This document shows positions 3,780-52,320 of a stretch of 64,000 bases of DNA, piece after piece. The stretch covers positions 1,911,015-1,975,014 of the forward strand of contig OZ253563.1 in assembly GCA_965262855.1 (NCBI GenBank). Direction: 5' to 3'. The DNA is from Arenicellales bacterium. GTDB lineage: Bacteria; Pseudomonadota; Gammaproteobacteria; Arenicellales; JAJDZL01. Within the stretch, counting starts at the first letter, position 1. Every line of letters begins with the position of its first letter. Under the pieces are notes generated by a model, which did not search any database, was not told the DNA's origin, and saw nothing but the letters and a program-made list of their open reading frames with translations. Both the position numbers and the translations under genes were made by a program.

Positions 3780-4265
3780 TCATCATATCTAATGGTTTGC
3801 CGGGCGGATTTCGTTGAAAAGTGCGAGGCAGGTACTGGGAAATCCTTCGCAGATGGCTTTCGAATCGAGCTGTTGGAGACGCAATAGGGCATGTCGGCGA
3901 TTCTGCGAACTGAATAAGATGGCATATCAAATTTGCCAGCATTGCAAAGAAATTCACTGAGAATATCATTCGGTTTTCACAAAAAAGAAAATAAGATTAT
4001 CAACATGCGTGAACTTGAAGCAAATCGGATTGAAAATAGAGGAAGTCTGAAATTAGATGAGTTGTCAGACTCTGTTTTGGTGCACTGGTATAACCAGCGT
4101 GGTGAGACGAGCGAAAACAGATTAAAGGAGCTTCGCAGCGAGATTGCCTTGTGGGAACTTTGATGCCAATGCAGCATAGCTCATGTTCAGTTCTATTGCC
4201 TGCATCAACTTGTTTGCCTTGATGCGGATGGTATTGCCGATTTGGTGGTCAGCTGCCCGTGCGCC

Positions 4266-6771
4266 CAATGGCATTCGTTTTGAAAAATTCCGAACACGTG
4301 GTCGTTGGTGATTTGCAAGTCATTGATGTAAATCATGTTTTTTGAGTGCAAAAAAATTGTCCTGAGCCCTTGACAAACACCACCGGTTCTGCGAAAATAA
4401 CAGTGAACATTGAAGCTTATCAGGAGAATACGCGATGGACGACAGCATCAAGCGATTGCACAGGACGACCTTTTGCGGGCAGCGATTCACGCGCCAGCAA
4501 TTGGTCGAGGTCCAGCAGACGGTTGACAGTTTTCCGCGCTTAAGTCGCAACGAGTTGGCGCAGACGATCTGTGAGCATTTGGATTGGCGAACGGATGGGG
4601 GCGTCAACAGCGCTTATGCGTGTTTGAAGATGCTCGAGGAGTTGCAGGCTGCGGGTGTATTGCGCTTGCCGGGCAAGGATGAGACGAAGGTTCGGGGGGG
4701 CCGCAAGCGACTGGAGTTGAGCGAGCGGAGTGAGCCGGGTGCGGCGGTGGTGGCGAGTTTGTCGGAGCTGTCGCCGATTGCGCTGCAGTTGGTGGAGTGC
4801 GAGGCGGACAAGGCGCAGTGGAACGAGCTGGTGGATCGTTATCATTATCTGGGCTACCGTCAGCCGATGGGATGTCACTTGCGTTATTTCATTGTTGACA
4901 AAGATAACCGGCGGCTGGGTTGTTTGCTGTTTCAGCGGGCCAGTGCGAAGTTGCCGTGCCGGGATGAATGGATCGGCTGGCAACCGGTGCGCTACAAGAA
5001 GCGTTTGAAGCAGGTGGTGCAAAATGCGCGGTTTTTGATCTTGCCCTGGGTGCAGGTGTCGAACCTGGCCTCGAAGGCATTGTCGCTGGCGGCACGGTGC
5101 ATGGCAGACGATTGGCAGACAAGATGGGGCGTGCGGCCGGTGCTGATGGAGACCTTCGTTGAAGCGGCGCGTTTTAGCGCCAGCAGTTATCGGGCGGCGG
5201 GCTGGCAGCGGATTGGCAAGACCGTCAAGCGCTCTGACAAGACCATCAAGGATGTGTATGTGATGCCATTGGCGGCCGATGCCCGTCGCATGCTGCTCGA
5301 AGGTGAGGCCAAAAAGCCCCGGCGAGTTGCGCCGCGGCAGCCGTCGGTCGGTTCTGCCGATGACCGGTTTGTGCGCATGTGGCGTGATTTTATCAGCATT
5401 GCAGCCGCGGTGGCTGAGCAATACGATCGACGCTGGCAACAGCGAAGACGGGTGCTCAATACGTTGCTGATCATGCTGTTTGTGTTCCGTCTGGTGTTTT
5501 CAAAGAATCATCAGGGCTATCAGATCACGGTCAACGAATTGTGGGCTCAGAGTCGGCTGCTGGGTGTGGAGCTGCCACAGCCGCAGCCGCCAGTGGCGTC
5601 CTCGATGTGTGTCGCCCGCCACAAGCTCGATGAGCAGGTGTTCAAAACAGTCTATCGGCAGGTGCTGGCGCGTTTGGATGAGCACTTGGGTGAGGATGCC
5701 CGTCGCGAGTGGTGCGGCCGGCGACTGCTGGCGGTAGATGGGAGCAAAATCAACTTGCCGCGGGCGCTGCTTGAAGCCGGCTATTCCCTGCCTTCCCAGG
5801 GTTGTTACTATCCGCAAGGCCTGGTGAGTTGTTTGTACCGGCTGGGCGACCGCATGCCAATGGATTTTGAGTTGCTGTCGCACCTGGACGAACATCAGCC
5901 CGCGCTCGGGCATCTGAAATGGTGCCGGGCGGGCGAAGTGGTGGTATACGACCGCGGTTATTATTCGTTCGAGTTGTTGCGCCAGCATGCGATACGCGGC
6001 ATCGACTGTATTTTTCGCCTCAAGCGTGGCAGTGCAGGTGCCTTTGATGAGTTCATTGACGGCTGCGAGGATGAACGCGTCATTGATGTTTTGCCGAGCG
6101 AGTCTCGCGCCCGGCACTGGCGCCGGCGTCATCCGGGTAAAACCTTGCACCCGATCCGGGTGCGCTGCGTCAGATACAGCGCCGGTGGCAATGACTACTG
6201 TCTTGCGACCACGCTGTTGGATCAAAACCAGTTTCCGGTCGCCGCACTGTCGGATGCGTATCACGGCCGCTGGGGCATTGAAGAGTTGTACAAAATCTCC
6301 AAGCGGTTGGTGGAAATCGAGCAATTTCACGCCAAGTCCGAGCGCGGCGTGAAACAGGAGCTGTATGCTCATTTTGTGCTGCTGGCGCTGTCTCGCTCGT
6401 TCGGTAACCAGTTGGAAGACGACCTGAATACGGGTGCTGTGTGCGATCAACCCAAGATGCGTGCGAATTTCAAGAATGTGCTGGTGACGGTGGCGAGAAA
6501 CTTTGAAGCGCTGATGCTGGGCAACTGGCAACTGGCTTCGAGCGCGGTATCGAACATTCTTCACAGCATCGGTAATTGTCTGCAAAAGGAACGTCCAGGA
6601 CGGTCGTGTCCGCGCATCTCAAAGCGTCCGGATGAGCGGTTCAGGAATGCCAATCGAAGAACTAGAACGGCCTAAAAAAACTGAACCATTGATCAGCTGC
6701 AGGTCGTCCAAATCTTGGGAAAATACCGAACTGTTAAACGAATAGCTTTTTTTGCTAAACGAATGCCATTG
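4266..6771 (+). mobile_element. IS4-type insertion sequence encoding a DUF4338-DDE fusion transposase, copy 1
   Basis: 15-bp perfect terminal inverted repeats CAATGGCATTCGTTT (4266-4280 and complement of 6757-6771); 10-bp target duplication CCCGTGCGCC (4256-4265 and 6772-6781); second copy at 22651-25156. Confidence 0.9.
4435..6675 (+). CDS. transposase with N-terminal DUF4338 (DruA-like) module fused to an IS4-family DDE domain
   Basis: 746 aa. N-terminal blocks DRYHYLGY, DEWIGW, NARFLILPW, NLASKALSL, METFVE..RF..SSYRAAGW. C-terminal AVDGSKINLP, VVVYDRGYYSF and YHGRWGIEELYKISK (the Y-2-R-3-E-6-K signature of IS4). Confidence 0.85.
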   Translation: MDDSIKRLHRTTFCGQRFTRQQLVEVQQTVDSFPRLSRNELAQTICEHLDWRTDGGVNSAYACLKMLEELQAAGVLRLPGKDETKVRGGRKRLELSERSEPGAAVVASLSELSPIALQLVECEADKAQWNELVDRYHYLGYRQPMGCHLRYFIVDKDNRRLGCLLFQRASAKLPCRDEWIGWQPVRYKKRLKQVVQNARFLILPWVQVSNLASKALSLAARCMADDWQTRWGVRPVLMETFVEAARFSASSYRAAGWQRIGKTVKRSDKTIKDVYVMPLAADARRMLLEGEAKKPRRVAPRQPSVGSADDRFVRMWRDFISIAAAVAEQYDRRWQQRRRVLNTLLIMLFVFRLVFSKNHQGYQITVNELWAQSRLLGVELPQPQPPVASSMCVARHKLDEQVFKTVYRQVLARLDEHLGEDARREWCGRRLLAVDGSKINLPRALLEAGYSLPSQGCYYPQGLVSCLYRLGDRMPMDFELLSHLDEHQPALGHLKWCRAGEVVVYDRGYYSFELLRQHAIRGIDCIFRLKRGSAGAFDEFIDGCEDERVIDVLPSESRARHWRRRHPGKTLHPIRVRCVRYSAGGNDYCLATTLLDQNQFPVAALSDAYHGRWGIEELYKISKRLVEIEQFHAKSERGVKQELYAHFVLLALSRSFGNQLEDDLNTGAVCDQPKMRANFKNVLVTVARNFEALMLGNWQLASSAVSNILHSIGNCLQKERPGRSCPRISKRPDERFRNANRRTRTA

Positions 6772-7073
6772 CCCGTGCGCCATGCCGGGCAATGGACCGT
6801 GAAGGTCAATGCCTGACCGTCAGATGATTGATGAAGCGCTGGGTCAAGTTTGAAACTTTCCGCTTCTGATAACAACTGACCGCCTCGGGCGGTGCTTGTT
6901 GCCGCAGTTCTTTGAAGCGGGAGTGGAACCCTCAAAATAAATCCTTCCAGTTCAATTGTGGATTATCGCTTGACAATACTTTGAATTTCATATCTATTTT
7001 GTGTCTGTGCGACCGGCAAACCGCTGAATCCACACGATCAGGTTCAACCCCCATCCATTCAGGAGGATGCAAG

Positions 7074-8096
7074 ATGGAAGAGATGTATGCCCCCAACGAT
7101 GAATCACTGCATCAATCGCACGATGCGTTCTTTTGCGAGTGGTTCAGCAAAGATAAATACGCCATCGAACTGGCTCAGCTTGCGCTTGGAGAAAATGCGA
7201 ACGTGTTGTTGGACTGGTCAAGTTTTCATCTGGAATCCACCGCTCTGAGTGAAGCGCAGGGGCGAAAGAGACAGGCGGACCTGTTGTGTTCCATGACCTT
7301 GAACAAGCATCAGTCGACGGGGCGCGTGTATCTGTTGTTGGAACATAAAAGTCATCAGGACAAAGCAACCCTGTCGCAGTTGTTTGAATACCAGTTGCTG
7401 GCTCGTCGTTCGCATCGTGGTGCGGTGATTTCTTCGATTGTCTATCACGGTCGCGAACGCGAGTGGAACGGGGGGTCAGGATTTCAGGATGTGTTTTTGA
7501 AACTGCATCCGGAATCCATCTCGCTGCTCAATCATCTGTTTGCCGTCAGTGCCGATTGTCTGCTGTTGAACCTGCGTGATGATGCGGTTCTTGAACGAAC
7601 GGGTGGTTTGAGTTGCCGGGTGATCTTATATATACTGAGCAAGATATGGCGACTGGATGATGAACGGGTGGCAGAGGCGTTTCGGATTGGTCTGACGATT
7701 GAATCGGATGAGGAACGCACTGAAATGATCAGATCTGTGACGCGGTATATTCGACGGAATTACCCAAGTTACAACTGGCAGAGACTGGAACAGATTGAAC
7801 GAGAAACGATAGTGGAGGAAAAGAGAATCATGGCACAGGTGATGACGCTTGCGGAATTGGAACAGCAGGAATACATGAAGCAGGGAATAGAACAGGGAAT
7901 AGAACAGGGAATTGAGCAGGGAATTGAGCGGGGAATTGAGCGGGGAATTGAGCGGGGAATAGAGCAAGGCTACAGTGATGCGACACGAAATATTGCTTTG
8001 AATTTGATTCGTGAAGGTCTTGGCGCCGAAACGATCTGCAAATTTACCGGATTGTCTTTGGATGATGTGAAAAAACTTCAAAACGATGTTCATTGA
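7074..8096 (+). CDS. Rpn/YhgA-like PD-(D/E)XK recombination-promoting nuclease / putative transposase
   Basis: ATG at 7074 preceded by AGGAGGA; N-terminal HDAFFCEWF.., ADLLCSM..VYLLLEHKSHQD core typical of the family; C-terminal G-I-E-Q/R repeats and an HTH-like tail. Confidence 0.8.
   Translation: MEEMYAPNDESLHQSHDAFFCEWFSKDKYAIELAQLALGENANVLLDWSSFHLESTALSEAQGRKRQADLLCSMTLNKHQSTGRVYLLLEHKSHQDKATLSQLFEYQLLARRSHRGAVISSIVYHGREREWNGGSGFQDVFLKLHPESISLLNHLFAVSADCLLLNLRDDAVLERTGGLSCRVILYILSKIWRLDDERVAEAFRIGLTIESDEERTEMIRSVTRYIRRNYPSYNWQRLEQIERETIVEEKRIMAQVMTLAELEQQEYMKQGIEQGIEQGIEQGIERGIERGIERGIEQGYSDATRNIALNLIREGLGAETICKFTGLSLDDVKKLQNDVH
7884..7967 (+). repeat. 7 x 12-bp in-frame tandem repeat encoding GIEQ/GIER
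   Basis: GGAATAGAACAG / GGAATTGAGCGG units read directly; the duplicate copy has 3 units (9014-9049). Confidence 0.95.
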
Positions 8097-8505
8097 TGCC
8101 AAAGTGGCATCTGATGCACTCGCTGCAACAGTTTTCTTTGTGCTTTGGCAGCGTCTTTGAAATTTCATTGATCATGTTCCTGTATATAAAACCCCGAAAT
8201 ATTGTTACCCAGTGGCGAAAATGCCAGCGGACAATACATCAGGTTCGCAATCACCTGCCAATCCAGACCAATTCCAACCTGTTGTACCTGTGTTCGATAA
8301 TCGGAGCAACAAAATCCAGTTGAATCGCTAAAATCTCGCTGCTGGTCACTGAATTAAATTTCATAATTGCGGCTTTGGTCTACTTGAGAATGATCAAAGT
8401 GTGGCTCAGTTCACAAGTATCGGCTGCTGACCTGTGCATCAAGCCACAACATCCCGGGCGAGTGCTTTCCATGCATGTATCTGAAGTTCTCAAGGTTTGC
8501 TGACA

Positions 8506-9178
8506 GCAGTTGTTTGAATACCAGTTGCTGGCTCGTCGTTCGCATCGTGGTGCGGTGATTTCTTCGATTGTCTATCACGGTCGCGAACGCGAGTGGAACG
8601 GGGGGTCAGGATTTCAGGATGTGTTTTTGAAACTGCATCCGGAATCCATCTCGCTGCTCAATCATCTGTTTGCCGTCAGTGCCGATTGTCTGCTGTTGAA
8701 CCTGCGTGATGATGCGGTTCTTGAACGAACGGGTGGTTTGAGTTGCCGGGTGATCTTATATATACTGAGCAAGATATGGCGACTGGATGATGAACGGGTG
8801 GCAGAGGCGTTTCGGATTGGTCTGACGATTGAATCGGATGAGGAACGCACTGAAATGATCAGATCTGTGACGCGGTATATTCGACGGAAATACCCAAGTT
8901 ACAACTGGCAGAGACTGGAACAGATTGAACGAGAAACGATAGTGGAGGAAAAGAGAATCATGGCACAGGTGATGACGCTTGCGGAATTGGAACAGCAGGA
9001 ATACATGAAGCAGGGAATAGAACAGGGAATTGAGCGGGGAATAGAGCAAGGCTACAGTAATGCGACACGAAATATTGCTTTGAATTTGATTCGTGAAGGT
9101 CTTGGCGCCGAAACGATCTGCAAATTTACCGGATTGTCTTTGGATGATGTGAAAAAACTGCAAAACGATGTTCATTGA
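8506..9178 (+). pseudogene. 5'-truncated duplicate of the Rpn gene (3' two-thirds only)
   Basis: Homology to 7376-8096 starts mid-codon region (..QLFEYQLLARRSH..); differs by N/K and D/N substitutions and 3 versus 7 repeat units; homology continues to about 9262. Confidence 0.85.
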
Positions 9179-9389
9179 TGCCGAAGTGGCATCTGATGCA
9201 CTCGCTGCAACAGTTTTCTTTGTGCTTTGGCAGCGTCTTTGTAATTTCATTGATCATGTTTCCAAAGCGTGATTTCAGTTGGAATTGATCGCCCTCTAAA
9301 ACATGAATGCAACATACAGTTCATTAGGTCGAATACGTTCAGTGTGGAACATCACGGCTTGAGTAAACGGTTACTGACAGCTTTTTTAA

Positions 9390-17795: not shown

Positions 17796-17987
17796 GTTTA
17801 GTACACAGTCGAATTTCTGTTTTCAAATAAGCAATGTCTTTGACAGCACTTGGGCAGCAAATTATGAGAAAATAAATTTTGTAACCATTCGCTGAAGCTG
17901 TGACAAAGGCGGCATTTTCCTTCAGACACGGGTTATGCTGATATTTTACCCCGACTGAATATACAGGGGGAGATTGGATTAGGCTGG

Positions 17988-18015
17988 CCGTATTGAACTT
18001 AAGAGTTCAATACGG
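17988..18015. repeat. 12-bp inverted repeat with 4-nt spacer (CCGTATTGAACT taag AGTTCAATACGG)
   Basis: read directly; spans the stop codon of the stand-alone DUF4338 ORF at an abrupt AT-rich/GC-rich boundary. Confidence 0.9.
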
Positions 18016-18580
18016 TTTTCCAGTTTCTGTGAAGCGGTTTGAGCCAGATATCTTTGATCGGCAGTGCATATTCGTTACGCACGTCGAGTTTGCCACGGCC
18101 TTGGGTTTGGCCGACCTGAATCCAATTGGCGGCTTGGTAGCAAGTTCCGGCGAAACGGGGGATTTCACAGAAGGTCTCAAACATGGCGGGAAGAATCGAG
18201 TAGCGTTGCAGCCAATCGTGCGGCAGGCGTTTTTCGCAGCATGCCAGAATATGGGAAGCCAGGTTGGGGATGCGAATCCATGGCAGGATCAAAAAGCGGG
18301 CGTTGTTGACGAGCAGATGCAGGTTGCGCTCGCGGCATTGTGCAGACCAGCCGATGAACTGATCGCGCGGTGCGGTCTTCCAGGCGGCGGCTCCAAAACC
18401 GAGCAGCGCCAGCGGTTCGTGGTTGGCGGAACGCACCAGATAACGCATCTGCGCACCGGGCAAAGGCTTGTAGCCGAGGTAGTGATAGCGCTCGATAAAC
18501 GAATTCCAGATTCGACTGCGGGGACCCGCTTTGATGATCTCAAAGTGCAACGGGCGCACTTGCCGCAGGTCTTGCGGCAA
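17999..18580 (-). CDS. stand-alone DUF4338 (DruA-like) domain protein
   Basis: 193 aa; ERYHYLGY, DQFIGW, NARFLILPW, NLASHIL, ETFCEIPRFAGTCYQAANW align block by block with the two transposase fusions. Confidence 0.75.
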   Translation of the reverse strand: MPQDLRQVRPLHFEIIKAGPRSRIWNSFIERYHYLGYKPLPGAQMRYLVRSANHEPLALLGFGAAAWKTAPRDQFIGWSAQCRERNLHLLVNNARFLILPWIRIPNLASHILACCEKRLPHDWLQRYSILPAMFETFCEIPRFAGTCYQAANWIQVGQTQGRGKLDVRNEYALPIKDIWLKPLHRNWKTVLNS

Positions 18581-18593
18581 TTCAATCTAGTCT
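18246..18593. repeat. 348-bp direct repeat, left copy (target duplication of the IS1634-family element)
   Basis: same sequence at 20590-20937 (constant offset 2344; translations identical). Confidence 0.9.
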
Positions 18594-20589
18594 CTTGACT
18601 TCGTAGAAAACTCGATTTTTACTCGATTTTCCGGATTTCATTTTTCAATATTATTATCATCATCTTGCAAGCGTCCATCCTGAAAAACAGCGATGTAGTG
18701 CCCTCATCAAAATAATACTTGCATATCAATCCGGACTGATGTATAACTTCATCCATGTTTGTAAGAAAGAAATTCGATGCCGCCCGAAACCGATACCGGG
18801 TGCAGATCGTGCAGAGCTTCCGCGACGGCAAGAAGGTGCGCCAGAAGATTATCCGCCATGTCGGCACCGCGCCCGGCGGCGCCCAGCTGACAAAGCTGAT
18901 GGAGCTCGGCGAGTTCATCAAGGAAGATCTCCGGCAGCAGTCCAATCCGCAGCAGGAGCTGTTCACGCCCAAGCAATACGCGGATCTTCTGAGCCAGTGC
19001 CGACGCAACCGCAAAGCGGCGCACCTCGGCGTCGACCTTGGACAGTGCCGGGAACAAAACCGCCTGAACATCGACGTGCGCGAAGCATTCGGCCGGCTTT
19101 ACTCAAGCATGGGCTGGGACCGCCTGCTCGGTTCCCGCAAAGCCAGCGCCAATCGCATCATCAAGGAACTGGTGCTGGCGCGCATCGCCCAGCCGCGGTC
19201 GAAACGCGGCACCGTCATGGAGCTGGCAAGAGACGGCGGCGTGACGCTGAATCTGGACTGGGTCTATCAGTCCATGGACTATCTTGACCCGCGGGTGATT
19301 GACAGCATACGCCGAAACGCGTCGGCCCGGGCTGAGGAACTTTTCACGCAGCCGATCGATGTCCTGTTCTATGACACCACGACACTTTATTTTCAAAGCG
19401 ACCGGGAAGACTACGGCCAAAACAAAGATCCTCTTCGCTTCAAGGGCTACAGCAAGGACGGCAAGCCGCATCGAACCCAGGTGGTGCTGGCATTGCTGGT
19501 GACCCGCGGCGGGATTCCGCTGGATTATGAGCTTTATCCGGGCAATACCTACGAGGGCGACACGCTGTGCCGGGCGCTCGATGGCATCACCGAACGATAC
19601 GATGTGAGCCGGGTGACCGTGGTGGCCGATGCCGGGCTGTTCAGCCACAGCAATCTTGAATGGCTGCGCGAGCGCAACCTGCCCTACATTGTGGGGTTTC
19701 GCGCCAAGAATGCGACGCGCAAGCTCAAGGAGCAGATTCTCGATGCCGACGGCTATGAGGGCTATATGTTCGACCAGGATGGTGAGGCTCAGTGCAACTG
19801 CAAGATCATCGCCCGCGGCGAGGAGCGAATCATCGCGACTTATTCAAAGAAGCGGGCGAGAAAAGACCGCCACAGCCGAGAGCGGGCGCTGGAGAAGCTG
19901 CTCAAGCGCCTGAAGCGTAGCGCAAAGCCGCTCAGCTTGGTGTCAAAAGGACATGCGCGGTTTCTCAACGTTCCATCTGACGGCGAGGCCACGGTCAATG
20001 AGGAAAAAGTGGCACAGGCCGCGCGCTGGGACGGCATCCACACCATCATCGCCTGGGGCAACGATCAGCTCAGCACCACCGAGCTGCTGCACCAATACCG
20101 TCAGCTGTGGCACATCGAACGCGGATTTCGCACCAACAAGCACGATCTGAGGATCCGACCGATCTTTCATTGGACAAGCCGGCGCATCCGAGCCCATATC
20201 GCCATCTGTTTCATGGCGTATTGCTGTGTGCAGCACATGAGCCACCGGCTCCAGGCGCTCGGACATCCGATGAGTCCGGAATCGATGCGGCGCGAACTGA
20301 ACCACCTGCAGGTCAGCATTCTGGAAAACCACCAAGACGACCGCAGATTCGCGATACCGAGCAACGCGTCGGCGCAAGCCAGACGGATCTATCGCTGTGT
20401 GAACCTCAAGTGGAGCACCGTACCGTTTGAGATCAAGCCCATGTGACAACCGACCTGATCCTTGCCAAATCGCTGCTGACACTGTGGCGCAATCTGACCG
20501 GTTTTGGTACCAACCTCAAAATGTAGTGCCCACATTTGAACCTCGATTCAATTAAAACAACTATTTACAGCGAAAGTTCTATTAACTCA
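18594..20589 (+). mobile_element. IS1634-family insertion sequence
   Basis: 1996 bp lying exactly between the two 348-bp repeats; single 563-aa transposase ORF. Confidence 0.85.
18755..20446 (+). CDS. IS1634 family transposase
   Basis: 563 aa; N-terminus MFVRKKFDAARNRYRVQIVQSFRDGKKVRQKII.. and DDE region (VVADAGLFSHSNLEWL, WHIERGFRTNK) typical of the family. Confidence 0.85.
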   Translation: MFVRKKFDAARNRYRVQIVQSFRDGKKVRQKIIRHVGTAPGGAQLTKLMELGEFIKEDLRQQSNPQQELFTPKQYADLLSQCRRNRKAAHLGVDLGQCREQNRLNIDVREAFGRLYSSMGWDRLLGSRKASANRIIKELVLARIAQPRSKRGTVMELARDGGVTLNLDWVYQSMDYLDPRVIDSIRRNASARAEELFTQPIDVLFYDTTTLYFQSDREDYGQNKDPLRFKGYSKDGKPHRTQVVLALLVTRGGIPLDYELYPGNTYEGDTLCRALDGITERYDVSRVTVVADAGLFSHSNLEWLRERNLPYIVGFRAKNATRKLKEQILDADGYEGYMFDQDGEAQCNCKIIARGEERIIATYSKKRARKDRHSRERALEKLLKRLKRSAKPLSLVSKGHARFLNVPSDGEATVNEEKVAQAARWDGIHTIIAWGNDQLSTTELLHQYRQLWHIERGFRTNKHDLRIRPIFHWTSRRIRAHIAICFMAYCCVQHMSHRLQALGHPMSPESMRRELNHLQVSILENHQDDRRFAIPSNASAQARRIYRCVNLKWSTVPFEIKPM

Positions 20590-20924
20590 AGAATATGGGA
20601 AGCCAGGTTGGGGATGCGAATCCATGGCAGGATCAAAAAGCGGGCGTTGTTGACGAGCAGATGCAGGTTGCGCTCGCGGCATTGTGCAGACCAGCCGATG
20701 AACTGATCGCGCGGTGCGGTCTTCCAGGCGGCGGCTCCAAAACCGAGCAGCGCCAGCGGTTCGTGGTTGGCGGAACGCACCAGATAACGCATCTGCGCAC
20801 CGGGCAAAGGCTTGTAGCCGAGGTAGTGATAGCGCTCGATAAACGAATTCCAGATTCGACTGCGGGGACCCGCTTTGATGATCTCAAAGTGCAACGGGCG
20901 CACTTGCCGCAGGTCTTGCGGCAA
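20590..20924 (-). pseudogene. duplicated 5' part of the DUF4338 gene (first ~112 codons)
   Basis: identical to the N-terminal part of ORF 17999-18580; runs into the IS1634 end. Confidence 0.85.
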
Positions 20925-20937
20925 TTCAATCTAGTCT
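20590..20937. repeat. 348-bp direct repeat, right copy
   Basis: duplicate of 18246-18593. Confidence 0.9.
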
Positions 20938-21824
20938 TACCCCAATTTGGTAGAGACGTTAGGATTTGAGAGGTTACCAGCGCCCTTAAGGGCGCTGGTA
21001 ACCTCTGGTTGCGCTTTTTTCAGCTGCGCTTCATACTCGATTGGACTCCTATTACCCAGACTCGTATGCAATCGTCGGGTGTTATACCAAGACTCGATAT
21101 ACCGAATCACTTGCTGTCTTAGTTCCTTCGCTGATTTTAAACGATCCGTTTTCAAAACGCTTTCCCGCTTCAATGTGGCAAACCATGATTCGGCTTGCGC
21201 ATTGTCATAACAATCACCGACACTGCCCATCGACTGCTTGATCCCATGCACTCGACACAAGGCTTGAAAGGCCTTCGAACTGTATTGTACTCCTTGGTCC
21301 GAATGGTGAATCACGCCTTCGCAACTCCGACCTCGAAGTGCCATCTGCAAGGCCTCACTCATCAAACCGACGTCCTGGCAGGTTTTCATCGACCAACCCA
21401 AAATCCGTCGGCTACAAGCGTCCTGCACCACCGCCAAATACAACACACCGTCTAACGTATGCAGATAAGTCGCATCCGCCACCCACAACTGATCCGGCTC
21501 GGATACGTTAAATTCACGATTCACTCGGTCTACTATACCGTGCGCGCGACCCGAGCAACGGGTGCTACGCACAAATTTTCGAGCTACACACGCCGATAAT
21601 CTCGCCTTTTGCATCAATCGTGCGACTCGATTTACACTCACTTCGACCCCACTCTTACACAACTGCGCAGCAATGCGGGGTGCACCATAAGTCCAACCAC
21701 TTTCGACCAATACACCACCAATCGCCGCCAATAACTTTTCATTGGCTTGCGAACGCGGACTCGGCTTGCGGTTTCGCCACGCATAATAACCTGATTCTGA
21801 AATCTCTAATGCCCGACACATCAA
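20937..21824 (-). CDS. IS3 family transposase OrfB (DDE integrase-like)
   Basis: 295 aa; WVADATYL, HSDQGVQYSS, DNAQAESWFATLKRE. Confidence 0.85.
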   Translation of the reverse strand: MMCRALEISESGYYAWRNRKPSPRSQANEKLLAAIGGVLVESGWTYGAPRIAAQLCKSGVEVSVNRVARLMQKARLSACVARKFVRSTRCSGRAHGIVDRVNREFNVSEPDQLWVADATYLHTLDGVLYLAVVQDACSRRILGWSMKTCQDVGLMSEALQMALRGRSCEGVIHHSDQGVQYSSKAFQALCRVHGIKQSMGSVGDCYDNAQAESWFATLKRESVLKTDRLKSAKELRQQVIRYIESWYNTRRLHTSLGNRSPIEYEAQLKKAQPEVTSALKGAGNLSNPNVSTKLG

Positions 21825-21856
21825 ACGGATCGCAAAGTTCTTCCTCTCCGCTTTGA

Positions 21857-22162
21857 TTAATTCGTACGCCCGGTTCCACCACGCTGGACCCCGCTGTCGG
21901 CGGCAAACCAGGCTGCCGCTTTTTTTAAGAACGCATTCTCCTGCTCTAACTCCTGATTGCGACGCTGTAAGCGACGCAACTGCGACACTTCACTCTCACC
22001 TGGCTCCGATTCACTCGCCTTCGCCTTGGCTTGACGTTTCCAATTTTGAATCGTCGTCGCCGAGGGCTCGTATCTGCGCGCTAACTCTCGCACCGATACC
22101 CCAGCTTCATGCTCCGATAATATATGTTCCTTAAATTCCTCGGCATAGTTCCCTTGACTCAT
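21857..22162 (-). CDS. IS3 family transposase OrfA (HTH)
   Basis: 101 aa; HTH (VSVRELARRYEPSATTIQNW) and leucine-zipper-like region. Confidence 0.85.
   Translation of the reverse strand: MSQGNYAEEFKEHILSEHEAGVSVRELARRYEPSATTIQNWKRQAKAKASESEPGESEVSQLRRLQRRNQELEQENAFLKKAAAWFAADSGVQRGGTGRTN
21920..21926 (-). promoter_or_regulatory. probable programmed -1 frameshift site (A7 run, CTTAAAAAAAGC)
   Basis: A-run near the end of orfA, upstream of the orfB frame, as in IS3-family elements. Confidence 0.55.
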
Positions 22163-22226
22163 CTTCGATTTTCCTCCAAATCTTTGGATTACTCTATTAC
22201 TAATGTGTCTCTACATTATCGGGGTA

Positions 22227-22650
22227 GTACCACTCGCAACAGGCTCTGGCTGGCACGCACCTCGAGCTGTTCTCCAACATACTCGCAGGGCACTGAGTAA
22301 TGATGCCGCTCAAACGTCACGTGATAATCCACATTGACTTTCACGGTTTTGATCTGTGCATATTCATAGCGATGCATCGGCAAGGCTCGAAGATGTGGCT
22401 GATCCAGCCGCACGAAAGCCTGCCATCGATTTTCAGGCAATTTCTGGAACGCTCTGAGGTTCAGTTCAACCAACAACTCTCGAATCGCTTGGTTCAGTTC
22501 ATACAGCGAAGTAAAACTGCGATGGCGAAGACACGCCACAATCCAGCGCTGTACCAATAACACTGCGCCTTCGACTTTTGCCTTGTCCTTCGGACGCCGC
22601 GGACGAACCGGCAGCACTGCTGTACGGTAATGCTCAGCCCACTGCTGGTA
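22227..22650 (-). pseudogene. IS21-family IstA transposase, C-terminal fragment
   Basis: ..[53 protein letters not shown]; cut by the IS4-type element on one side and the IS3 element on the other. Confidence 0.75.
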
Positions 22651-25156
22651 CAATGGCATTCGTTTTGAAAAATTCCGAACACGTGGTCGTTGGTGATTTG
22701 CAAGTCATTGATGTAAATCATGTTTTTTGAGTGCAAAAAAATTGTCCTGAGCCCTTGACAAACACCACCGGTTCTGCGAAAATAACAGTGAACATTGAAG
22801 CTTATCAGGAGAATACGCGATGGACGACAGCATCAAGCGATTGCACAGGACGACCTTTTGCGGGCAGCGATTCACGCGCCAGCAATTGGTCGAGGTCCAG
22901 CAGACGGTTGACAGTTTTCCGCGCTTAAGTCGCAACGAGTTGGCGCAGACGATCTGTGAGCATTTGGATTGGCGAACGGATGGGGGCGTCAACAGCGCTT
23001 ATGCGTGTTTGAAGATGCTCGAGGAGTTGCAGGCTGCGGGTGTATTGCGCTTGCCGGGCAAGGATGAGACGAAGGTTCGGGGGGGCCGCAAGCGACTGGA
23101 GTTGAGCGAGCGGAGTGAGCCGGGTGCGGCGGTGGTGGCGAGTTTGTCGGAGCTGTCGCCGATTGCGCTGCAGTTGGTGGAGTGCGAGGCGGACAAGGCG
23201 CAGTGGAACGAGCTGGTGGATCGTTATCATTATCTGGGCTACCGTCAGCCGATGGGATGTCACTTGCGTTATTTCATTGTTGACAAAGATAACCGGCGGC
23301 TGGGTTGTTTGCTGTTTCAGCGGGCCAGTGCGAAGTTGCCGTGCCGGGATGAATGGATCGGCTGGCAACCGGTGCGCTACAAGAAGCGTTTGAAGCAGGT
23401 GGTGCAAAATGCGCGGTTTTTGATCTTGCCCTGGGTGCAGGTGTCGAACCTGGCCTCGAAGGCATTGTCGCTGGCGGCACGGTGCATGGCAGACGATTGG
23501 CAGACAAGATGGGGCGTGCGGCCGGTGCTGATGGAGACCTTCGTTGAAGCGGCGCGTTTTAGCGCCAGCAGTTATCGGGCGGCGGGCTGGCAGCGGATTG
23601 GCAAGACCGTCAAGCGCTCTGACAAGACCATCAAGGATGTGTATGTGATGCCATTGGCGGCCGATGCCCGTCGCATGCTGCTCGAAGGTGAGGCCAAAAA
23701 GCCCCGGCGAGTTGCGCCGCGGCAGCCGTCGGTCGGTTCTGCCGATGACCGGTTTGTGCGCATGTGGCGTGATTTTATCAGCATTGCAGCCGCGGTGGCT
23801 GAGCAATACGATCGACGCTGGCAACAGCGAAGACGGGTGCTCAATACGTTGCTGATCATGCTGTTTGTGTTCCGTCTGGTGTTTTCAAAGAATCATCAGG
23901 GCTATCAGATCACGGTCAACGAATTGTGGGCTCAGAGTCGGCTGCTGGGTGTGGAGCTGCCACAGCCGCAGCCGCCAGTGGCGTCCTCGATGTGTGTCGC
24001 CCGCCACAAGCTCGATGAGCAGGTGTTCAAAACAGTCTATCGGCAGGTGCTGGCGCGTTTGGATGAGCACTTGGGTGAGGATGCCCGTCGCGAGTGGTGC
24101 GGCCGGCGACTGCTGGCGGTAGATGGGAGCAAAATCAACTTGCCGCGGGCGCTGCTTGAAGCCGGCTATTCCCTGCCTTCCCAGGGTTGTTACTATCCGC
24201 AAGGCCTGGTGAGTTGTTTGTACCGGCTGGGCGACCGCATGCCAATGGATTTTGAGTTGCTGTCGCACCTGGACGAACATCAGCCCGCGCTCGGGCATCT
24301 GAAATGGTGCCGGGCGGGCGAAGTGGTGGTATACGACCGCGGTTATTATTCGTTCGAGTTGTTGCGCCAGCATGCGATACGCGGCATCGACTGTATTTTT
24401 CGCCTCAAGCGTGGCAGTGCAGGTGCCTTTGATGAGTTCATTGACGGCTGCGAGGATGAACGCGTCATTGATGTTTTGCCGAGCGAGTCTCGCGCCCGGC
24501 ACTGGCGCCGGCGTCATCCGGGTAAAACCTTGCACCCGATCCGGGTGCGCTGCGTCAGATACAGCGCCGGTGGCAATGACTACTGTCTTGCGACCACGCT
24601 GTTGGATCAAAACCAGTTTCCGGTCGCCGCACTGTCGGATGCGTATCACGGCCGCTGGGGCATTGAAGAGTTGTACAAAATCTCCAAGCGGTTGGTGGAA
24701 ATCGAGCAATTTCACGCCAAGTCCGAGCGCGGCGTGAAACAGGAGCTGTATGCTCATTTTGTGCTGCTGGCGCTGTCTCGCTCGTTCGGTAACCAGTTGG
24801 AAGACGACCTGAATACGGGTGCTGTGTGCGATCAACCCAAGATGCGTGCGAATTTCAAGAATGTGCTGGTGACGGTGGCGAGAAACTTTGAAGCGCTGAT
24901 GCTGGGCAACTGGCAACTGGCTTCGAGCGCGGTATCGAACATTCTTCACAGCATCGGTAATTGTCTGCAAAAGGAACGTCCAGGACGGTCGTGTCCGCGC
25001 ATCTCAAAGCGTCCGGATGAGCGGTTCAGGAATGCCAATCGAAGAACTAGAACGGCCTAAAAAAACTGAACCATTGATCAGCTGCAGGTCGTCCAAATCT
25101 TGGGAAAATACCGAACTGTTAAACGAATAGCTTTTTTTGCTAAACGAATGCCATTG
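22651..25156 (+). mobile_element. IS4-type DUF4338-DDE insertion sequence, copy 2
   Basis: constant offset 18385 from copy 1, all six-frame ORF translations identical; no target duplication (flanks CTGCTGGTA / GATGCGCGCC). Confidence 0.9.
22820..25060 (+). CDS. DUF4338-IS4-type DDE fusion transposase (copy 2)
   Basis: 746 aa identical to 4435-6675. Confidence 0.85.
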   Translation: MDDSIKRLHRTTFCGQRFTRQQLVEVQQTVDSFPRLSRNELAQTICEHLDWRTDGGVNSAYACLKMLEELQAAGVLRLPGKDETKVRGGRKRLELSERSEPGAAVVASLSELSPIALQLVECEADKAQWNELVDRYHYLGYRQPMGCHLRYFIVDKDNRRLGCLLFQRASAKLPCRDEWIGWQPVRYKKRLKQVVQNARFLILPWVQVSNLASKALSLAARCMADDWQTRWGVRPVLMETFVEAARFSASSYRAAGWQRIGKTVKRSDKTIKDVYVMPLAADARRMLLEGEAKKPRRVAPRQPSVGSADDRFVRMWRDFISIAAAVAEQYDRRWQQRRRVLNTLLIMLFVFRLVFSKNHQGYQITVNELWAQSRLLGVELPQPQPPVASSMCVARHKLDEQVFKTVYRQVLARLDEHLGEDARREWCGRRLLAVDGSKINLPRALLEAGYSLPSQGCYYPQGLVSCLYRLGDRMPMDFELLSHLDEHQPALGHLKWCRAGEVVVYDRGYYSFELLRQHAIRGIDCIFRLKRGSAGAFDEFIDGCEDERVIDVLPSESRARHWRRRHPGKTLHPIRVRCVRYSAGGNDYCLATTLLDQNQFPVAALSDAYHGRWGIEELYKISKRLVEIEQFHAKSERGVKQELYAHFVLLALSRSFGNQLEDDLNTGAVCDQPKMRANFKNVLVTVARNFEALMLGNWQLASSAVSNILHSIGNCLQKERPGRSCPRISKRPDERFRNANRRTRTA

Positions 25157-26741
25157 GATGCGCGCCGGTTGCTCGGTGGCGCACATCTTGATTCCCACTA
25201 TTTCCCGAAAGGAGTTTGCAGGAAAATGTATACGGACGCGGATTTCAAGTCATTGCTGGATTATTTCTCACACATTGAGGACCCGCGCGGGCGTCGCGGG
25301 CGGCGCTATCGCCTCGGGACACTGCTGGCCATTGCGGCGGCAGCCACAGTTTGCGGTGCGCGCGGCTATCAGGAGATGGGCGAATGGGTACAGGCGCAGT
25401 CAGAAAAGGTGCTTCGTCATTTCAGGGTTGGATTGCGGCGTGGCAAAGTCCAGCGTCCAAGCGTGTATTGCATCCGCGAGGCGCTGGTCAGAACCGACCC
25501 CGGGCAGTTCGATGACGCGCTTCGCAAATGGTGCATATCGATTGACGGCTGCGATGAGGCGATTGCGATCGATGGCAAGACGATGAAAGGAGCGGTTGAC
25601 GGGAACAATCGCCAGATTCATGTGCTGGGCGCCTGTGGGCATCAAAGTCGCATGCATCTGGCAAAAAAAAAGATGAGGCTTGACTCGGACGGGAGTGAGG
25701 AGCAAAAGTACACCAACGAGATCGGCGCGTGCATCCCGTTGCTGAAATCGATTGATGACCTCAATGGCAAAGTGATCACCGCTGATGCGCTGTTGACGCA
25801 GCATGCGATTGCGAGCTATATTCTCAGCCGGGGCGGGCACTATATGTTTATTCTCAAGAACAACCAGAAAGATCTCACTGGCGAGGTGAGTATTCATTTT
25901 ACCGATCTGCTTCGACTCAGACCGGATACTGAAGCTGACTTTGTCACCCGCACCGGTGACGCGACCGATGCAGGGAAAAAGGTGCCCAAGGTCCAGCATG
26001 GACGTCATGAGATCCGCGAAATCCGGGTCAGCGACAATGCCGAACTGATGGCGTATCTGAATCGCGAGTCGAAATTTCCGGACATCGCGCAGATATTCCG
26101 CATTCGTCGCACGATTGACCACTACCGGCGTGGCGAGGTAACCAAGACGACGCAGGAAACCGTTGTCGGGATCACCTCACTGCAAGCCGCTCAGGCTGAT
26201 CCGAAGACTTTGCTGGGGCTCAACCGCGGCCATTGGACCATTGAATCGAATCATCGCATTTTGGACGACTCAAACACCTGGCACGAGGATCACCTTCTGA
26301 TTCGCACCGGGCATGGACCGGAAAACGTCACGGCACTTCGCCGATTTGCGATCTCGGTGATCAGACGGCACGCAGAATCAGTTGCGCCGACGATGCGCAA
26401 ATTGCGCACCAACGCACGTTTGCTCCTGGATTATCTGGGCCTGGCCGGGAACACGCGACGCAGGGGTCGGCGTTCGCCGATCACCGGGGCCGTATGTCGA
26501 TGACCCACCGAATTGTGATTGCGAAAAATCGTTGTTCGGCAACAGCCGAAACAGGAAAAATCCGTACTCCCATAGGACAGTTCACTGAAAGAATACTGAA
26601 AATCGGTTGCGGCATCACCTGAAGCGGTTCAAATCAGGCACAGTGCATGGTTTCATGCCAGTGGCCTGAACATACTTGTGATCCATAGGCTAAAATCACG
26701 AGTCGATGGCGTTCGGTTAGCGTGACAAAAAATTTGCCTTG
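25157..26741 (+). mobile_element. ISAs1-type element, 5'-truncated copy (lacks the left end and the DUF4338 module)
   Basis: identical to 52969-54553 (offset 27812); truncation point is the IS4-type right end. Confidence 0.85.
25226..26503 (+). CDS. ISAs1 (H-repeat) family DDE transposase part, complete from an internal ATG
   Basis: MYTDADFKSLLDYFSHIEDPRGRRGRRYRLGTLL.. matches canonical ISAs1 N-termini; AGGAG lies 11 nt upstream of the ATG. The listed ORF 25100-26503 is a hybrid that starts at a TTG inside the IS4-type end. Confidence 0.6.
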   Translation: MYTDADFKSLLDYFSHIEDPRGRRGRRYRLGTLLAIAAAATVCGARGYQEMGEWVQAQSEKVLRHFRVGLRRGKVQRPSVYCIREALVRTDPGQFDDALRKWCISIDGCDEAIAIDGKTMKGAVDGNNRQIHVLGACGHQSRMHLAKKKMRLDSDGSEEQKYTNEIGACIPLLKSIDDLNGKVITADALLTQHAIASYILSRGGHYMFILKNNQKDLTGEVSIHFTDLLRLRPDTEADFVTRTGDATDAGKKVPKVQHGRHEIREIRVSDNAELMAYLNRESKFPDIAQIFRIRRTIDHYRRGEVTKTTQETVVGITSLQAAQADPKTLLGLNRGHWTIESNHRILDDSNTWHEDHLLIRTGHGPENVTALRRFAISVIRRHAESVAPTMRKLRTNARLLLDYLGLAGNTRRRGRRSPITGAVCR

Positions 26742-45065: not shown

Positions 45066-45815
45066 ATGGCTATCAAAATCAATCAGCCCATAGTAGATTA
45101 CAAGGTTGCTTCCAAAAGCGATGAGCCGGGGCCTCTTTTCACCTTGTCGGAAGAGCATCCTGCCTCACAAAGTGACGATAATTTAGTCGGCATCATCGCT
45201 GAAAATAAGTCCAACGTGGTCCAGATGATGCACCACGAACGTGTTGAAAGACCGGAAATGCTGAGAGGGAGCACCTACAAGATCAAAACACCGCTTTCCG
45301 AACATGCACTTTATGTAACCATCAATGACACAACATTGAATGCGGGAACGCCTTATGAACGACAGCGTCCATTTGAAATTTTCATTAATTCGAAAAATAT
45401 GGATAATTTCCAGTGGACAGTTGCCCTTACGAGGATTATTTCGGCTGTTTTCAGAAAAGGTGGGGACAGCACGTTTCTTGTTGAGGAACTCCACGCAGTG
45501 TTCGATCCTCGCGGCGGATATTTCAAAAAGGGTGGCAGATTCACGCCATCCCTAGTTGCCGAAATCGGTTCTGTCATCGAAATGCACATGAAGCGTATCG
45601 GATTGATCACGGATGAACCTCTGCCAGAAAATACCAAACAGATTCTTGAAGAAAAGAGGCTGGAATTTGAAAAGCGCATCAATTTTCCAATGGGGGATGC
45701 CGAGAGCAGTTTTCCGGATGGCGCTGAATTGTGTATTGTTTGCAGTACTCGGGCAATGGTGTATCTGGACGGTTGCATGACCTGTCTGAACTGCGGCGAA
45801 TCCAAGTGCTCATAA
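45066..45815 (+). CDS. class II ribonucleotide reductase C-terminal fragment NrdJb
   Basis: 249 aa, 10 nt after nrdJa; C-terminal Cys cluster CIVCSTRAMVYLDGCMTCLNCGESKC; split arrangement as in Pseudomonas nrdJab. Confidence 0.8.
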   Translation: MAIKINQPIVDYKVASKSDEPGPLFTLSEEHPASQSDDNLVGIIAENKSNVVQMMHHERVERPEMLRGSTYKIKTPLSEHALYVTINDTTLNAGTPYERQRPFEIFINSKNMDNFQWTVALTRIISAVFRKGGDSTFLVEELHAVFDPRGGYFKKGGRFTPSLVAEIGSVIEMHMKRIGLITDEPLPENTKQILEEKRLEFEKRINFPMGDAESSFPDGAELCIVCSTRAMVYLDGCMTCLNCGESKCS

Positions 45816-45873
45816 ACCTCCTACGTTGAGAATATCTCAAATACTGATCGTTTCATTTCACTGATTCTCATTG
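45514..45873 (+). repeat. nrdJb 3' end plus downstream flank, repeat copy A
   Basis: homologous to 49476-49785 plus 52182-52232; the last 114 coding nt differ at 1 position. Confidence 0.9.
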
Positions 45874-49475: not shown

Positions 49476-49777
49476 GCGGATATTTCAAAAAAGGCGGCAA
49501 ATTCACACCATCTCTGGTAGCCGAAATCGGCTCAGTCGTAGAAATGCACATGAAGCGGATCGGAATGATCACGGATGAACCACTGTCGGAACACACCAAA
49601 CGGATTCTTGAAGAAAAGAGGCTGGAATTTGAAAAGCGCATTAATGTTTCAATGGATGATTACGAGAGCAGTTTTCCGGATGGCGCTGAATTGTGTAATG
49701 TTTGCAGTACTCGGGCAATGGTGTATCTGGACGGTTGCATGACCTGTCTGAACTGCGGCGAATCCAAGTGCTCATAA
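49476..49777 (+). pseudogene. partial duplicate of the nrdJb 3' end (nrdJb')
   Basis: encodes ..GYFKKGGKFTPSLVAEIGSVVEMHMKRIGMITDEPL..CNVCSTRAMVYLDGCMTCLNCGESKCS; no upstream coding part. Confidence 0.9.
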
Positions 49778-49793
49778 CCCCCCTAGTGTCTTG

Positions 49794-50267: not shown

Positions 50268-51281
50268 TCAATGTCGCTGTAGATTGTTCTGAATCTGCTC
50301 GACTTGTTTGCGACTCATTCCGGTATATTGACAAATCCTACTGATTTCCATCCCATCGCGAATCAAATTTTCGGCGATTTTTTCCGAAGCTTTTTTCTCT
50401 CCCTCTTTCACGCCTTTTTTCAGCCCTTGTTCCAAACCTTGTTCCAAACCTTGTTCCATGCCTTGTTCCATGCCCTCATTTTTAATTTCGTCAAATAAAG
50501 ATAACATCAATCGTTTCCCCTTCGGTAATGCTTGCTCTTCAATTTGAGCTATGGTTTCGTAACTAATGCGCTTGTTGTGGGACTGCAGATAGTTTACCAC
50601 CATTGGCAGCAACCGATTCCGTTTTTCATCGCTCAAACCTTTTGCCAGTCGAAACACCTTTTCGAACGTTCCCTCATCGGCATCCCATACCTTCGACAGC
50701 GCGTAAAGCACCACCTCAGAATCCATGCCAGCGGCGCGTCTTTGTGCAATGACCTCATGCAAATTCACCATCTTGCACCTGAAATTCAAAAAATACCCAC
50801 CCCATTCACGTTGCAGGTGATCGGATACCGGCTGCAAGCTCAGTTGGAACTCCAAGGGTCCTGACCAATTGGGCTTTTTACCGTTGTAGATGATCATCGG
50901 CAGCACCCGGCATTGTTTGCCTTCTCGTAAATACAGCGACGTCTGATAGCCCAGCAGTTGCATCAGCGCGTTGGAGTCCGAGGCGCTTTTGTGCTCCAGC
51001 AAAAAAATGAACTTGGTGGAGGAGTTATCCTCCTTGGTGTTGACCGAAAAGATCAAGTCGGCGAACTTCTCGCGCCCGGCTTGATCGATCACAGAACTGG
51101 AATCCATATTCAGGGTCGGCCAGTTGAACTCGTTGTTGGTGGCCTCGTCAAAGACGATTTCGAACAGTTCCCGGCTCAAGTCGTCCACCCCGTCCTCACG
51201 ATGATAGGTGAACTTGAATAGATTATCGTGAGTCGGTTCGATAGAAAGATCTGGGGGTGATTGGGAGGTCTGCTTGGCCAT
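50268..51281 (-). CDS. Rpn/YhgA-like PD-(D/E)XK nuclease / putative transposase (third paralogue)
   Basis: 337 aa from the ATG at 51281; HDNLFKFTY.., ADLIFSV..FIFLLEHKSASD, MEQG/LEQG repeat tract, C-terminal HTH-like tail. Confidence 0.8.
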   Translation of the reverse strand: MAKQTSQSPPDLSIEPTHDNLFKFTYHREDGVDDLSRELFEIVFDEATNNEFNWPTLNMDSSSVIDQAGREKFADLIFSVNTKEDNSSTKFIFLLEHKSASDSNALMQLLGYQTSLYLREGKQCRVLPMIIYNGKKPNWSGPLEFQLSLQPVSDHLQREWGGYFLNFRCKMVNLHEVIAQRRAAGMDSEVVLYALSKVWDADEGTFEKVFRLAKGLSDEKRNRLLPMVVNYLQSHNKRISYETIAQIEEQALPKGKRLMLSLFDEIKNEGMEQGMEQGLEQGLEQGLKKGVKEGEKKASEKIAENLIRDGMEISRICQYTGMSRKQVEQIQNNLQRH

Positions 51282-52232: not shown

Positions 52233-52320
52233 GAAAATTCGCCAAAGGGGTTGTGCTAAGAAAATTAAGGGCATTATCAAGAATTAAATGCTTTCAATAC
52301 AAGCATCTAGTGAAAAGAGA

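Follow-up and report, generated by a model that had tools for sequence, protein, structure and literature searches.

The window analysed here is a 64,000-nucleotide stretch of DNA from Arenicellales bacterium (contig OZ253563.1, positions 1,911,015 to 1,975,014 of the forward strand), and the subject of this report is a protein module, DUF4338 (Pfam PF14236, DruA), carried in it by insertion sequences (IS). The first-pass annotation, made from the letters alone, had recognised the module as DUF4338 in three contexts, and the Pfam profile agrees, beyond what chance would give: against a gathering score of 27 bits, it scored 122 bits in the open reading frame (ORF) at 4435–6675 (aa 99–263, E 3e-35), 68 bits in ORF 52441–54315 (aa 7–153, E 1e-18), and 145 bits in ORF 17999–18580 on the reverse strand (aa 14–170, E 3e-42). 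The features that carry the module, or derive from its carriers, are as follows.

4266–6771, forward strand: IS4-type insertion sequence, copy 1 (2506 bp; from self-BLAST, ends and flanks)
4435–6675, forward strand: 746-aa transposase (winged-helix-like aa 1–90, Mom-like GNAT/DUF4338 aa ~95–292, IS4 DDE core aa 335–655)
4435–4704, forward strand: winged-helix-like N-terminal domain (three helices and a beta-hairpin in the model; aligns with database relatives P0001, P0004 and others)
4717–5310, forward strand: DUF4338 module, Mom-like GNAT (Pfam DruA; hhalign against the Mom family; residue conservation)
5437–6399, forward strand: IS4-family DDE core (NCBIfam NF033592 at aa 335–655, profile positions 20–330 of 332; Pfam DDE_Tnp_1)
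22651–25156, forward strand: IS4-type insertion sequence, copy 2 (100% identical to copy 1 over 2506 bp by self-BLAST; ORF 22820–25060)
52321–54553, forward strand: ISAs1-type insertion sequence (2233 bp; from ends and flanks)
52441–54315, forward strand: 624-aa transposase (Mom-like GNAT/DUF4338 aa 1–185, DDE_Tnp_1_assoc aa 210–301, ISAs1 DDE core aa 233–578)
53475–53484, forward strand: A9G run inside the ISAs1-type ORF (relatives show at this place a slippery A AAA AAG, with the next ORF in the -1 frame)
25157–26741, forward strand: 5'-truncated ISAs1-type copy (identical to 52969–54553 by self-BLAST; without the DUF4338 module; abuts IS4-type copy 2)
17881–18593, reverse strand: 3' remnant of an IS66-type element (codons ~103–297 of a winged-helix and DUF4338 gene, ORF 17999–18580, and 118 bp to the element end)
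20590–20937, reverse strand: second copy of the first 348 bp of the remnant (direct repeat flanking an IS1634-family element)

Insertion sequences carrying the module

IS4-family elements were recognised by an IS4-type DDE transposase, terminal inverted repeats (IRs), and a target-site duplication (TSD) of 9–12 bp. Copy 1 has a transposase scoring 158 bits with NF033592 (cut-off 115), perfect 15-bp IRs (CAATGGCATTCGTTT, 4266–4280 and 6757–6771), and a 10-bp TSD (CCCGTGCGCC, 4256–4265 and 6772–6781). Copy 2 sits between an IS21 fragment and the 5'-truncated ISAs1-type copy, and comparison of its flanks gave no TSD. The corresponding ISAs1-family features are a transposase with DDE_Tnp_1_assoc, terminal IRs and a TSD, and the ISAs1-type element has a transposase scoring 161 bits with NF033564 (cut-off 70) and matching PF13808, imperfect 19-bp IRs (CAGGGCGAATTTTTGTTCA and CAAGGCAAATTTTTTGTCA, 52321–52339 and 54535–54553), and a 10-bp TSD (TGAAAAGAGA, 52311–52320 and 54554–54563). 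The module had been placed N-terminally on IS4-type (4435-, 22820-) and ISAs1-type transposases, in keeping with the NCBIfam cut-offs passed by the C-terminal parts. The two scaffolds had also been called unrelated; they do belong to different families, but both cores match Pfam PF01609, and they are therefore distant relatives. Likewise, the fresh TSDs claimed for these elements are present, at 10 bp each, around IS4-type copy 1 and the ISAs1-type element, but not around IS4-type copy 2. Identical copies and intact TSDs suggest that both types of element moved recently. A nested insertion shared with an Arenicellales metagenome-assembled genome (MAG) was considered and rejected, the ISAs1-type element having no nucleotide match there. 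The TSDs of IS4-type elements are rich in GC, and GCGC occurs in several of them (CCCGTGCGCC for window copy 1; GATGCGCCTT, CCAGCGCGAC and CCCGGCGCAC from the flanks at loci L064, L065 and L118), a hint that certain targets may be preferred; to the right of copy 2 (25157–25166) the sequence is GATGCGCGCC.

The N-terminal domain of the 746-aa transposase was modelled as three helices and a beta-hairpin at aa ~10–78, followed by a GNAT-type alpha/beta domain (AlphaFold2, AF2; predicted local distance difference test, pLDDT, 93.6). Alignment shows this winged-helix-like domain to be common to stand-alone proteins of ~295 aa as well, three family members have weak PaaX matches in it, and it presumably binds DNA. 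Over their whole length the ~295-aa proteins align with the first 300 aa of the IS4-type transposase, so that the fused unit is the whole cassette of winged helix and DUF4338. The ISAs1-type fusion opens directly with the GNAT domain, without a winged helix, in both alignment and AF2 model.

Relatives of the ISAs1-type element (L143, 3916–4001; L144, 1478–1563) have an ORF1 of ~330 aa that stops just past a conserved CCC AAA AAA G and comprises the module, DDE_Tnp_1_assoc and the first catalytic D, with the remaining DDE domain in the -1 frame. Unlike canonical ISAs1-family members, they thus appear to use a -1 frameshift; the sequence suggests programmed frameshifting at A AAA AAG to give OrfA and OrfAB, which would account for the many database proteins of 327–333 aa. 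At this spot the window copy has the A9G run within a single 624-aa ORF, and could represent a fused variant, a transcriptional-slippage site, or an error in homopolymer length.

The third occurrence had been taken for a stand-alone ORF of 193 aa. It is instead the truncated remnant of a gene of ~297 codons: P0001, its nearest relative, has 297 aa at 98% identity, the nearest relatives as a group are 290–300 aa long, and the part surviving at 17881–18587 (codons 103–297 and 118 bp downstream) is 99% identical to positions 1675–2381 of locus L003. The end of the remnant, read inwards from 17881, is GTAACCATTCGCTG. In L001–L003 the start of the intact gene overlaps the end of an upstream IS66-family transposase gene by 4 bp; the transposase of L001 passes the NCBIfam cut-off, and inverted repeats starting with GTAA bound the transposase and DUF4338 gene pair in L001, L128 and L139. 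Because intact relatives of the 193-aa ORF overlap IS66-family transposase genes, IS66 is counted as the third transposase family here, and the window, judged by these relatives, holds relics of a third DUF4338-bearing element. The IS66 transposase is present only in the relatives (L001–L003, L128, L130, L139); tblastn of the window found no IS66 transposase homology, and the piece at 17881–18593 does not qualify as an IS66 member on its own.

The relic was later split by an IS1634-family element, and an IS3-family element abuts it at 20938. A perfect 348-bp direct repeat (18246–18593 and 20590–20937) flanks the 1996-bp element at 18594–20589, which encodes an IS1634-family transposase (NCBIfam E 5e-102). 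Target duplications of unusual length are known from IS1634 elements, and the repeat would be an example that arose within the remnant of the DUF4338 gene.

Fold of the module and relation to Mom

The first-pass annotation left the module without a biochemical role, a statement that was out of date. DUF4338 had already been called a GNAT domain in a 2024 comparative study (PMC10853773), and here it is a relative of the phage Mu protein Mom with the catalytic residues kept. The structure prediction and fold search that the annotation had proposed were carried out on two AF2 models, one of the IS4-type module with its winged helix and one of the ISAs1-type GNAT domain only (pLDDT 94.7). Foldseek returned 115 and 204 PDB matches, respectively, at E ≤ 1e-3, all of them GNATs among the matches listed. 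For the GNAT-only model the best of 350,542 PDB chains was Mom (8bv8_B; E 1.3e-7, template-modelling (TM) scores 0.67/0.63, the highest TM listed).

Sequence profiles point the same way. Mom (PF25680) was the sole family of the Pfam GNAT clan to cross-match, in 54 of 126 family members at E ≤ 0.1 (best E 4e-7). With hhalign, the module alignment matched an alignment of 13 Mom-family proteins from diverse phage records (a scan of viral contigs having given only near-identical Mom copies) at a probability of 97.6% and E 4e-12 over 155 columns, and a reversed-alignment control gave 0.7%. The IS66-, IS4- and ISAs1-associated clades, each compared alone with Mom, gave probabilities of 93.5–96.2%. 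No significant score was obtained for the family hidden Markov model against the single Mu Mom sequence, and PDB sequence searches with one module or the family profile gave nothing useful. The module thus has a GNAT fold and belongs to the lineage of phage Mu Mom, with a winged helix before it in its full form; the GNAT assignment was known, and the specific tie to Mom is new.

Mom moves glycine from Gly-tRNA to adenine N6 in double-stranded DNA; its R111 and S124 are essential, and H58, Y59, D149, R151 and Y159 are important (PMC13219725, whose numbering equals GenBank numbering plus 10). The residues correspond in the hhalign alignment as follows.

Mom H58/Y59: module H137/Y138, motif HYLG
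Mom R111: module R199, motif RFLIL
Mom S124: module S213, motif NLAS
Mom D149: module D/E243, motif ETFVD
Mom Y159: module Y252, the Y of RF.G(T/S)(C/S)Y

Across 126 sequences from three clades these positions were kept in 93–100% of cases (H in 125, R in 125, S in 126, D/E in 119, Y in 117), and the predicted catalytic residues of the IS4-type module are H137/Y138, R199, N210, S213, E243, R246 and Y252. Catalysis is argued from this near-invariance of a Mom-type active site. The acetyl-CoA pyrophosphate loop Q/R-x-x-G-x-G/A, expected between strand 4 and helix 3, was not found there: the three window modules read LPWVQVSNLAS, LEPIANLAS and LPWIRIPNLAS, and 96 of the 126 relatives have no Gly in the loop. 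Mom likewise has no acetyl-CoA glycine motif.

These features bear on the possibility that the module is a conventional acetyl-CoA acetyltransferase of proteins or small molecules, which could acetylate the transposase or a host factor (e.g. a nucleoid protein) and so tune transposition. The GNAT fold itself speaks for it, as do the many protein, polyamine and aminoglycoside acetyltransferases among the top PDB matches and the listing of the DndF-fused GNAT among candidate protein-targeting co-effectors (PMC10853773). We consider it very unlikely, since the pyrophosphate loop is missing, the relation in both sequence and structure is specifically to Mom, and the conserved residues are those of the Mom active site, not those of protein acetyltransferases.

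Two observations concern phages. In Microbacterium phage Pickles13 (L057, 195–928) a Mom-family gene lies directly beside a phage tRNA-Gly(CCC), which fits Gly-tRNA as the Mom co-substrate. In BFVD, fold matches to the cassette include GNAT domains in phage proteins annotated as homing endonuclease or endonuclease-like (Campylobacter phage CP21, several Myoviridae), and these predicted structures may be another pairing of the GNAT fold with mobile-DNA nucleases.

Spread among transposases

The recurrence of the module on different transposases, which the annotation had described for two families, proved wider still: the architecture survey found it with IS4, Tn5/IS50-like, ISAs1, IS66, IS630 and ISAzo13 transposases. 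The genome scan was built on an alignment of the IS4-type clade, towards which the survey is biased; it gave at least 583 genomic loci, and detailed counts come from 80 that were retrieved. The closest of these loci (93–94% amino-acid identity) are in an Arenicellales MAG; going by this one mobile element, the window would probably derive from a related gammaproteobacterium. A single ORF of ~740–800 aa was present in 47 of the 80 loci (Gamma- and Alphaproteobacteria, Acidobacteriota, Bdellovibrionales and others), often in several to many copies per genome, and by our own tally a DDE transposase was fused or adjacent in ~70 of the 80. In relatives the IS4-type elements measure 2.44–2.56 kb, have the conserved end CAATGGCATTC and 9–10-bp TSDs, and occur in several phyla. 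Over 44 IS4-type loci, median identity to the window protein was 49.6% for the module versus 47.2% for the DDE core; a module at least as conserved as the core argues, at the level of sequence, for a function tied to the element.

Other arrangements were also found. The cassette gene may overlap a downstream ORF with DDE_Tnp_1_assoc and a DDE domain (ISAs1-like), or lie upstream or downstream of an IS66 transposase gene. An exhaustive profile search (E ≤ 1e-3) yielded 15,672 clusters at 50% identity, and fusion partners were read from Pfam scans of its long members: IS66 transposase with the module C-terminal (the P0380 cluster, 25 members on IS-sized contigs), complete Tn5-like transposases with Tnp_DNA_bind and the dimerisation domain kept, ISAzo13 transposase, IS630 transposase (HTH and DDE_3), and ISAs1 transposase. 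Singleton fusions (Dam-like methyltransferase, cyclase, MORN repeats) call for caution. Among 72,556 plasmid records, 2 held a relative. In their cores the IS4, ISAs1 and IS66 elements are ordinary, and the accessory enzyme cassette is what distinguishes them. The open-access literature yielded no paper tying DUF4338/DruA to Mom or to transposons.

At L074 (3233–6481, Arenicellales MAG) two tandem DUF4338 genes precede a DDE_Tnp_1 transposase gene. One of the singletons, P0441 (620 aa, on a 4.3-kb contig), has DUF4338 and DDE_Tnp_1_assoc followed by a Dam-like D12 N6-adenine DNA methyltransferase where the DDE domain would be expected; it may be a chimera, and its domain order is suggestive of a link between the module and adenine modification.

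Element ends and end recognition

The annotation had raised, among other candidates, a shared end-binding domain, pointing to similar outer ends of the two elements as weak evidence. Many DDE transposon ends begin with 5'-CA, and no motif was found to be common to all DUF4338-bearing elements. IS4-type ends share the motif GCATTC with some IS66-type ends, but it was rejected as a general end signal, being absent from other DUF4338-bearing elements (L125, L127, L130). In the window transposases the IS4 profile is covered nearly in full and the ISAs1 profile completely, and Tn5-like fusions keep their DNA-binding and dimerisation domains; the module is therefore an add-on, not a replacement.

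In its fuller form the proposal is that of a non-catalytic DNA-binding module that recognises transposon ends or target DNA and gives the transpososome its specificity. The winged-helix-like N-terminal domain, the strong conservation of the IR CAATGGCATTC among IS4-type elements whose proteins are only 45–55% identical, the GCATTC shared with some IS66-type ends, and the fact that Mom itself binds double-stranded DNA would all fit. Since partner transposases keep their own DNA-binding domains, ISAs1-type fusions have no winged helix, and ends differ between element types (with L125, L127 and L130 lacking the motif altogether), it is unlikely that the module supplies end recognition, and a mere scaffold would have no need of a catalytic constellation that is near-invariant in all clades. 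We therefore regard a purely DNA-binding module as quite unlikely.

Proposed activity

The analysis establishes the identity and fold of the domain, its homology to Mom, the conservation of the catalytic residues, the element boundaries, and the link to several transposase families; an enzyme activity, its substrate and donor, and a role in transposition are inferred. The reading that we prefer, at a probability of roughly 0.4, is that DDE transposons have repeatedly recruited the module as a working acyl- or aminoacyltransferase that acts in cis on nucleic acid, probably on DNA bases. Its presumed reaction is the transfer of an acyl or aminoacyl group to a nucleic acid; the likeliest acceptor is a base in double-stranded DNA, as for Mom, and the donor, by analogy with Mom, is perhaps an aminoacyl-tRNA rather than acetyl-CoA. 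The cassette would have been recruited many times as an accessory: it is fused in frame in IS4, Tn5-like, ISAs1, IS630, ISAzo13 and IS66 transposases, and in IS66-type and ISAs1-like elements it also forms a gene of its own that overlaps the transposase gene. That it acts in cis, on the DNA of the element itself or of its target, is argued from this fusion or translational coupling to the transposase. The mark might control transposition in the way that Dam methylation does for IS10 and IS50, or alternatively shield DNA from nucleases.

Several results weigh against this reading. When the winged-helix domain was part of the Foldseek query, Mom was not among the best 50 PDB matches, and in the structure search other GNATs were only about tenfold worse than Mom, which leaves room for a protein, small-molecule or RNA substrate. 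The window proteins fall below the Mom Pfam threshold (27.1 bits) and have no Mom match at E ≤ 0.01, and Mom proteins have no reciprocal match to the DruA Pfam model. The essential HTH-like (helix-turn-helix-like) insertion of Mom (residues 175–209) is absent, hhalign leaving a 35-column gap there, and DUF4338 modules have a different insertion, RDxWIGW. Transposases are usually scarce, which makes them a poor fit for broad DNA protection, and activity is presumed for every DUF4338 protein. Finally, DruA, DndF fusions (PMC10853773) and single cyclase and MORN examples show the module outside transposons as well, and it is therefore not specific to transposition.

A different possibility is a trans-acting cargo: a Mom-like enzyme that modifies DNA cell-wide, or acts on a defence system, and benefits the carrier replicon through anti-restriction as in Mu or through mimicry of a Druantia-type self mark, with no part in transposition. 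The known role of Mom is restriction evasion (PMC13219725; PMC7261163), the Pfam family includes Druantia DruA, some relatives adjoin type I restriction-modification genes, and ~295-aa stand-alone forms are very common. In-frame fusion in at least five transposase families and the 4-bp gene overlaps point instead to stoichiometric action in cis; pure cargo is seldom retained by insertion sequences, whereas the module is as conserved as the DDE core, and the window holds no Druantia genes. Cargo acting in trans thus appears unlikely.

The module might also be directed at tRNA, binding or modifying aminoacyl-tRNA and sensing translation status or acting as a toxin-like addiction factor (compare the GNAT toxins TacT and AtaT). 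The co-substrate of Mom is Gly-tRNA (PMC13219725), and GNAT toxins act on aminoacyl-tRNA (as cited in PMC13219725), but the elements hold only transposase and module, with no antitoxin-like partner gene, and fusion to a DNA enzyme and to a winged-helix domain points to DNA. This is a most improbable account of the module.

A bolder version of the preferred acyltransferase reading, which we regard as doubtful, takes the Mom-type domain to be functional on transposases of at least five DDE families, where it would place a mark derived from an aminoacyl or acyl group on DNA bases at the element or in its vicinity and so give insertion sequences an epigenetic switch or shield of their own. By the same logic, DruA would modify DNA as a self mark in Druantia type I, the part taken in type II by the methylase DruM.

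Relation to Druantia

Druantia type I is recognised by druA in an operon with druB–D and the large helicase-nuclease gene druE. Among all ORFs of the window no druB–E genes were found and no ORF exceeded 805 aa, the neighbours being IS and housekeeping genes. PADLOC DruA models matched weakly and partially (E 7e-5 to 3e-3 over ~50–65 residues). The window proteins share the Pfam family PF14236 with DruA of Druantia type I, matching it well above threshold, but unlike DruA they are parts of insertion sequences, not members of a defence operon; they belong to a family named for DruA and are not Druantia components.

Surrounding repeats and insertion sequences

The region around the IS66-type relic is a pile-up of at least five IS families. 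The IS3-family element (20938–22223) contains orfA (21857–22162) and orfB (20937–21824) and has the ends TACCCC...GGGGTA, and beside it an IS21-family transposase fragment (22216–22659) is cut off by IS4-type copy 2. Elsewhere in the window, paralogous genes for Rpn-family (PD-(D/E)XK) recombination-promoting nucleases/putative transposases lie at 6912–8096, 7376–9260 and 50268–51443; they carry C-terminal (E/Q)GI(E/Q) repeats, and one pair reflects a local duplication (7376–7918 equals 8506–9048). A 310-bp repeat with 90.6% identity is present at 45514–45823 and 49476–49785.

Comparison with known systems and significance

The module resembles phage Mu Mom (PF25680; PDB 8bv8) in its GNAT fold, profile homology, catalytic-residue equivalents and missing acetyl-CoA glycine loop, and also in being encoded on a DDE-transposable element, Mom lying at the right end of Mu. 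It differs in having its own RDxWIGW insertion instead of the HTH-like one, in the N-terminal winged helix of most forms, in being fused to or overlapping a transposase, and in scoring below the Mom Pfam threshold. The IS4- and ISAs1-type elements are like canonical IS4-family (IS4, IS50/Tn5) and ISAs1-family members in DDE cores that pass NCBIfam equivalog cut-offs, in IRs and in 10-bp TSDs, and unlike them in an extra N-terminal enzyme-like cassette of 190–300 aa, with elements of ~2.2–2.5 kb. The IS66-type relatives are like single-transposase-type IS66 elements, which we take to be the ISBst12-like group, in their IS66 DDE transposase (L001) and in ends that begin with GTAA. They are unlike other IS66 elements in that the winged-helix and DUF4338 gene overlaps the transposase gene (downstream or upstream) or is fused at its C-terminus, and unlike the usual IS66 there is no room for tnpA and tnpB genes.

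In IS10 and IS50, Dam methylation controls transposition, an adenine mark on the ends coupling it to replication. The parallel would be a functional analogy only, the mark being made there by a host enzyme and here, presumably, by the element's own.

For transposon biology, the finding would be a non-nuclease enzyme domain recruited repeatedly by IS4, Tn5-like, ISAs1, IS66, IS630 and ISAzo13 transposases, and we know of no precedent for such an accessory function in insertion sequences. Many genome annotations of 'DruA' or 'DUF4338' concern pieces of transposons rather than defence genes, and defence-system counts based on PF14236 alone will be too high. The residue-level link to Mom makes DruA, a protein without assigned biochemistry, testable, and if the module does modify DNA, tRNA-dependent DNA hypermodification would reach well beyond phages.

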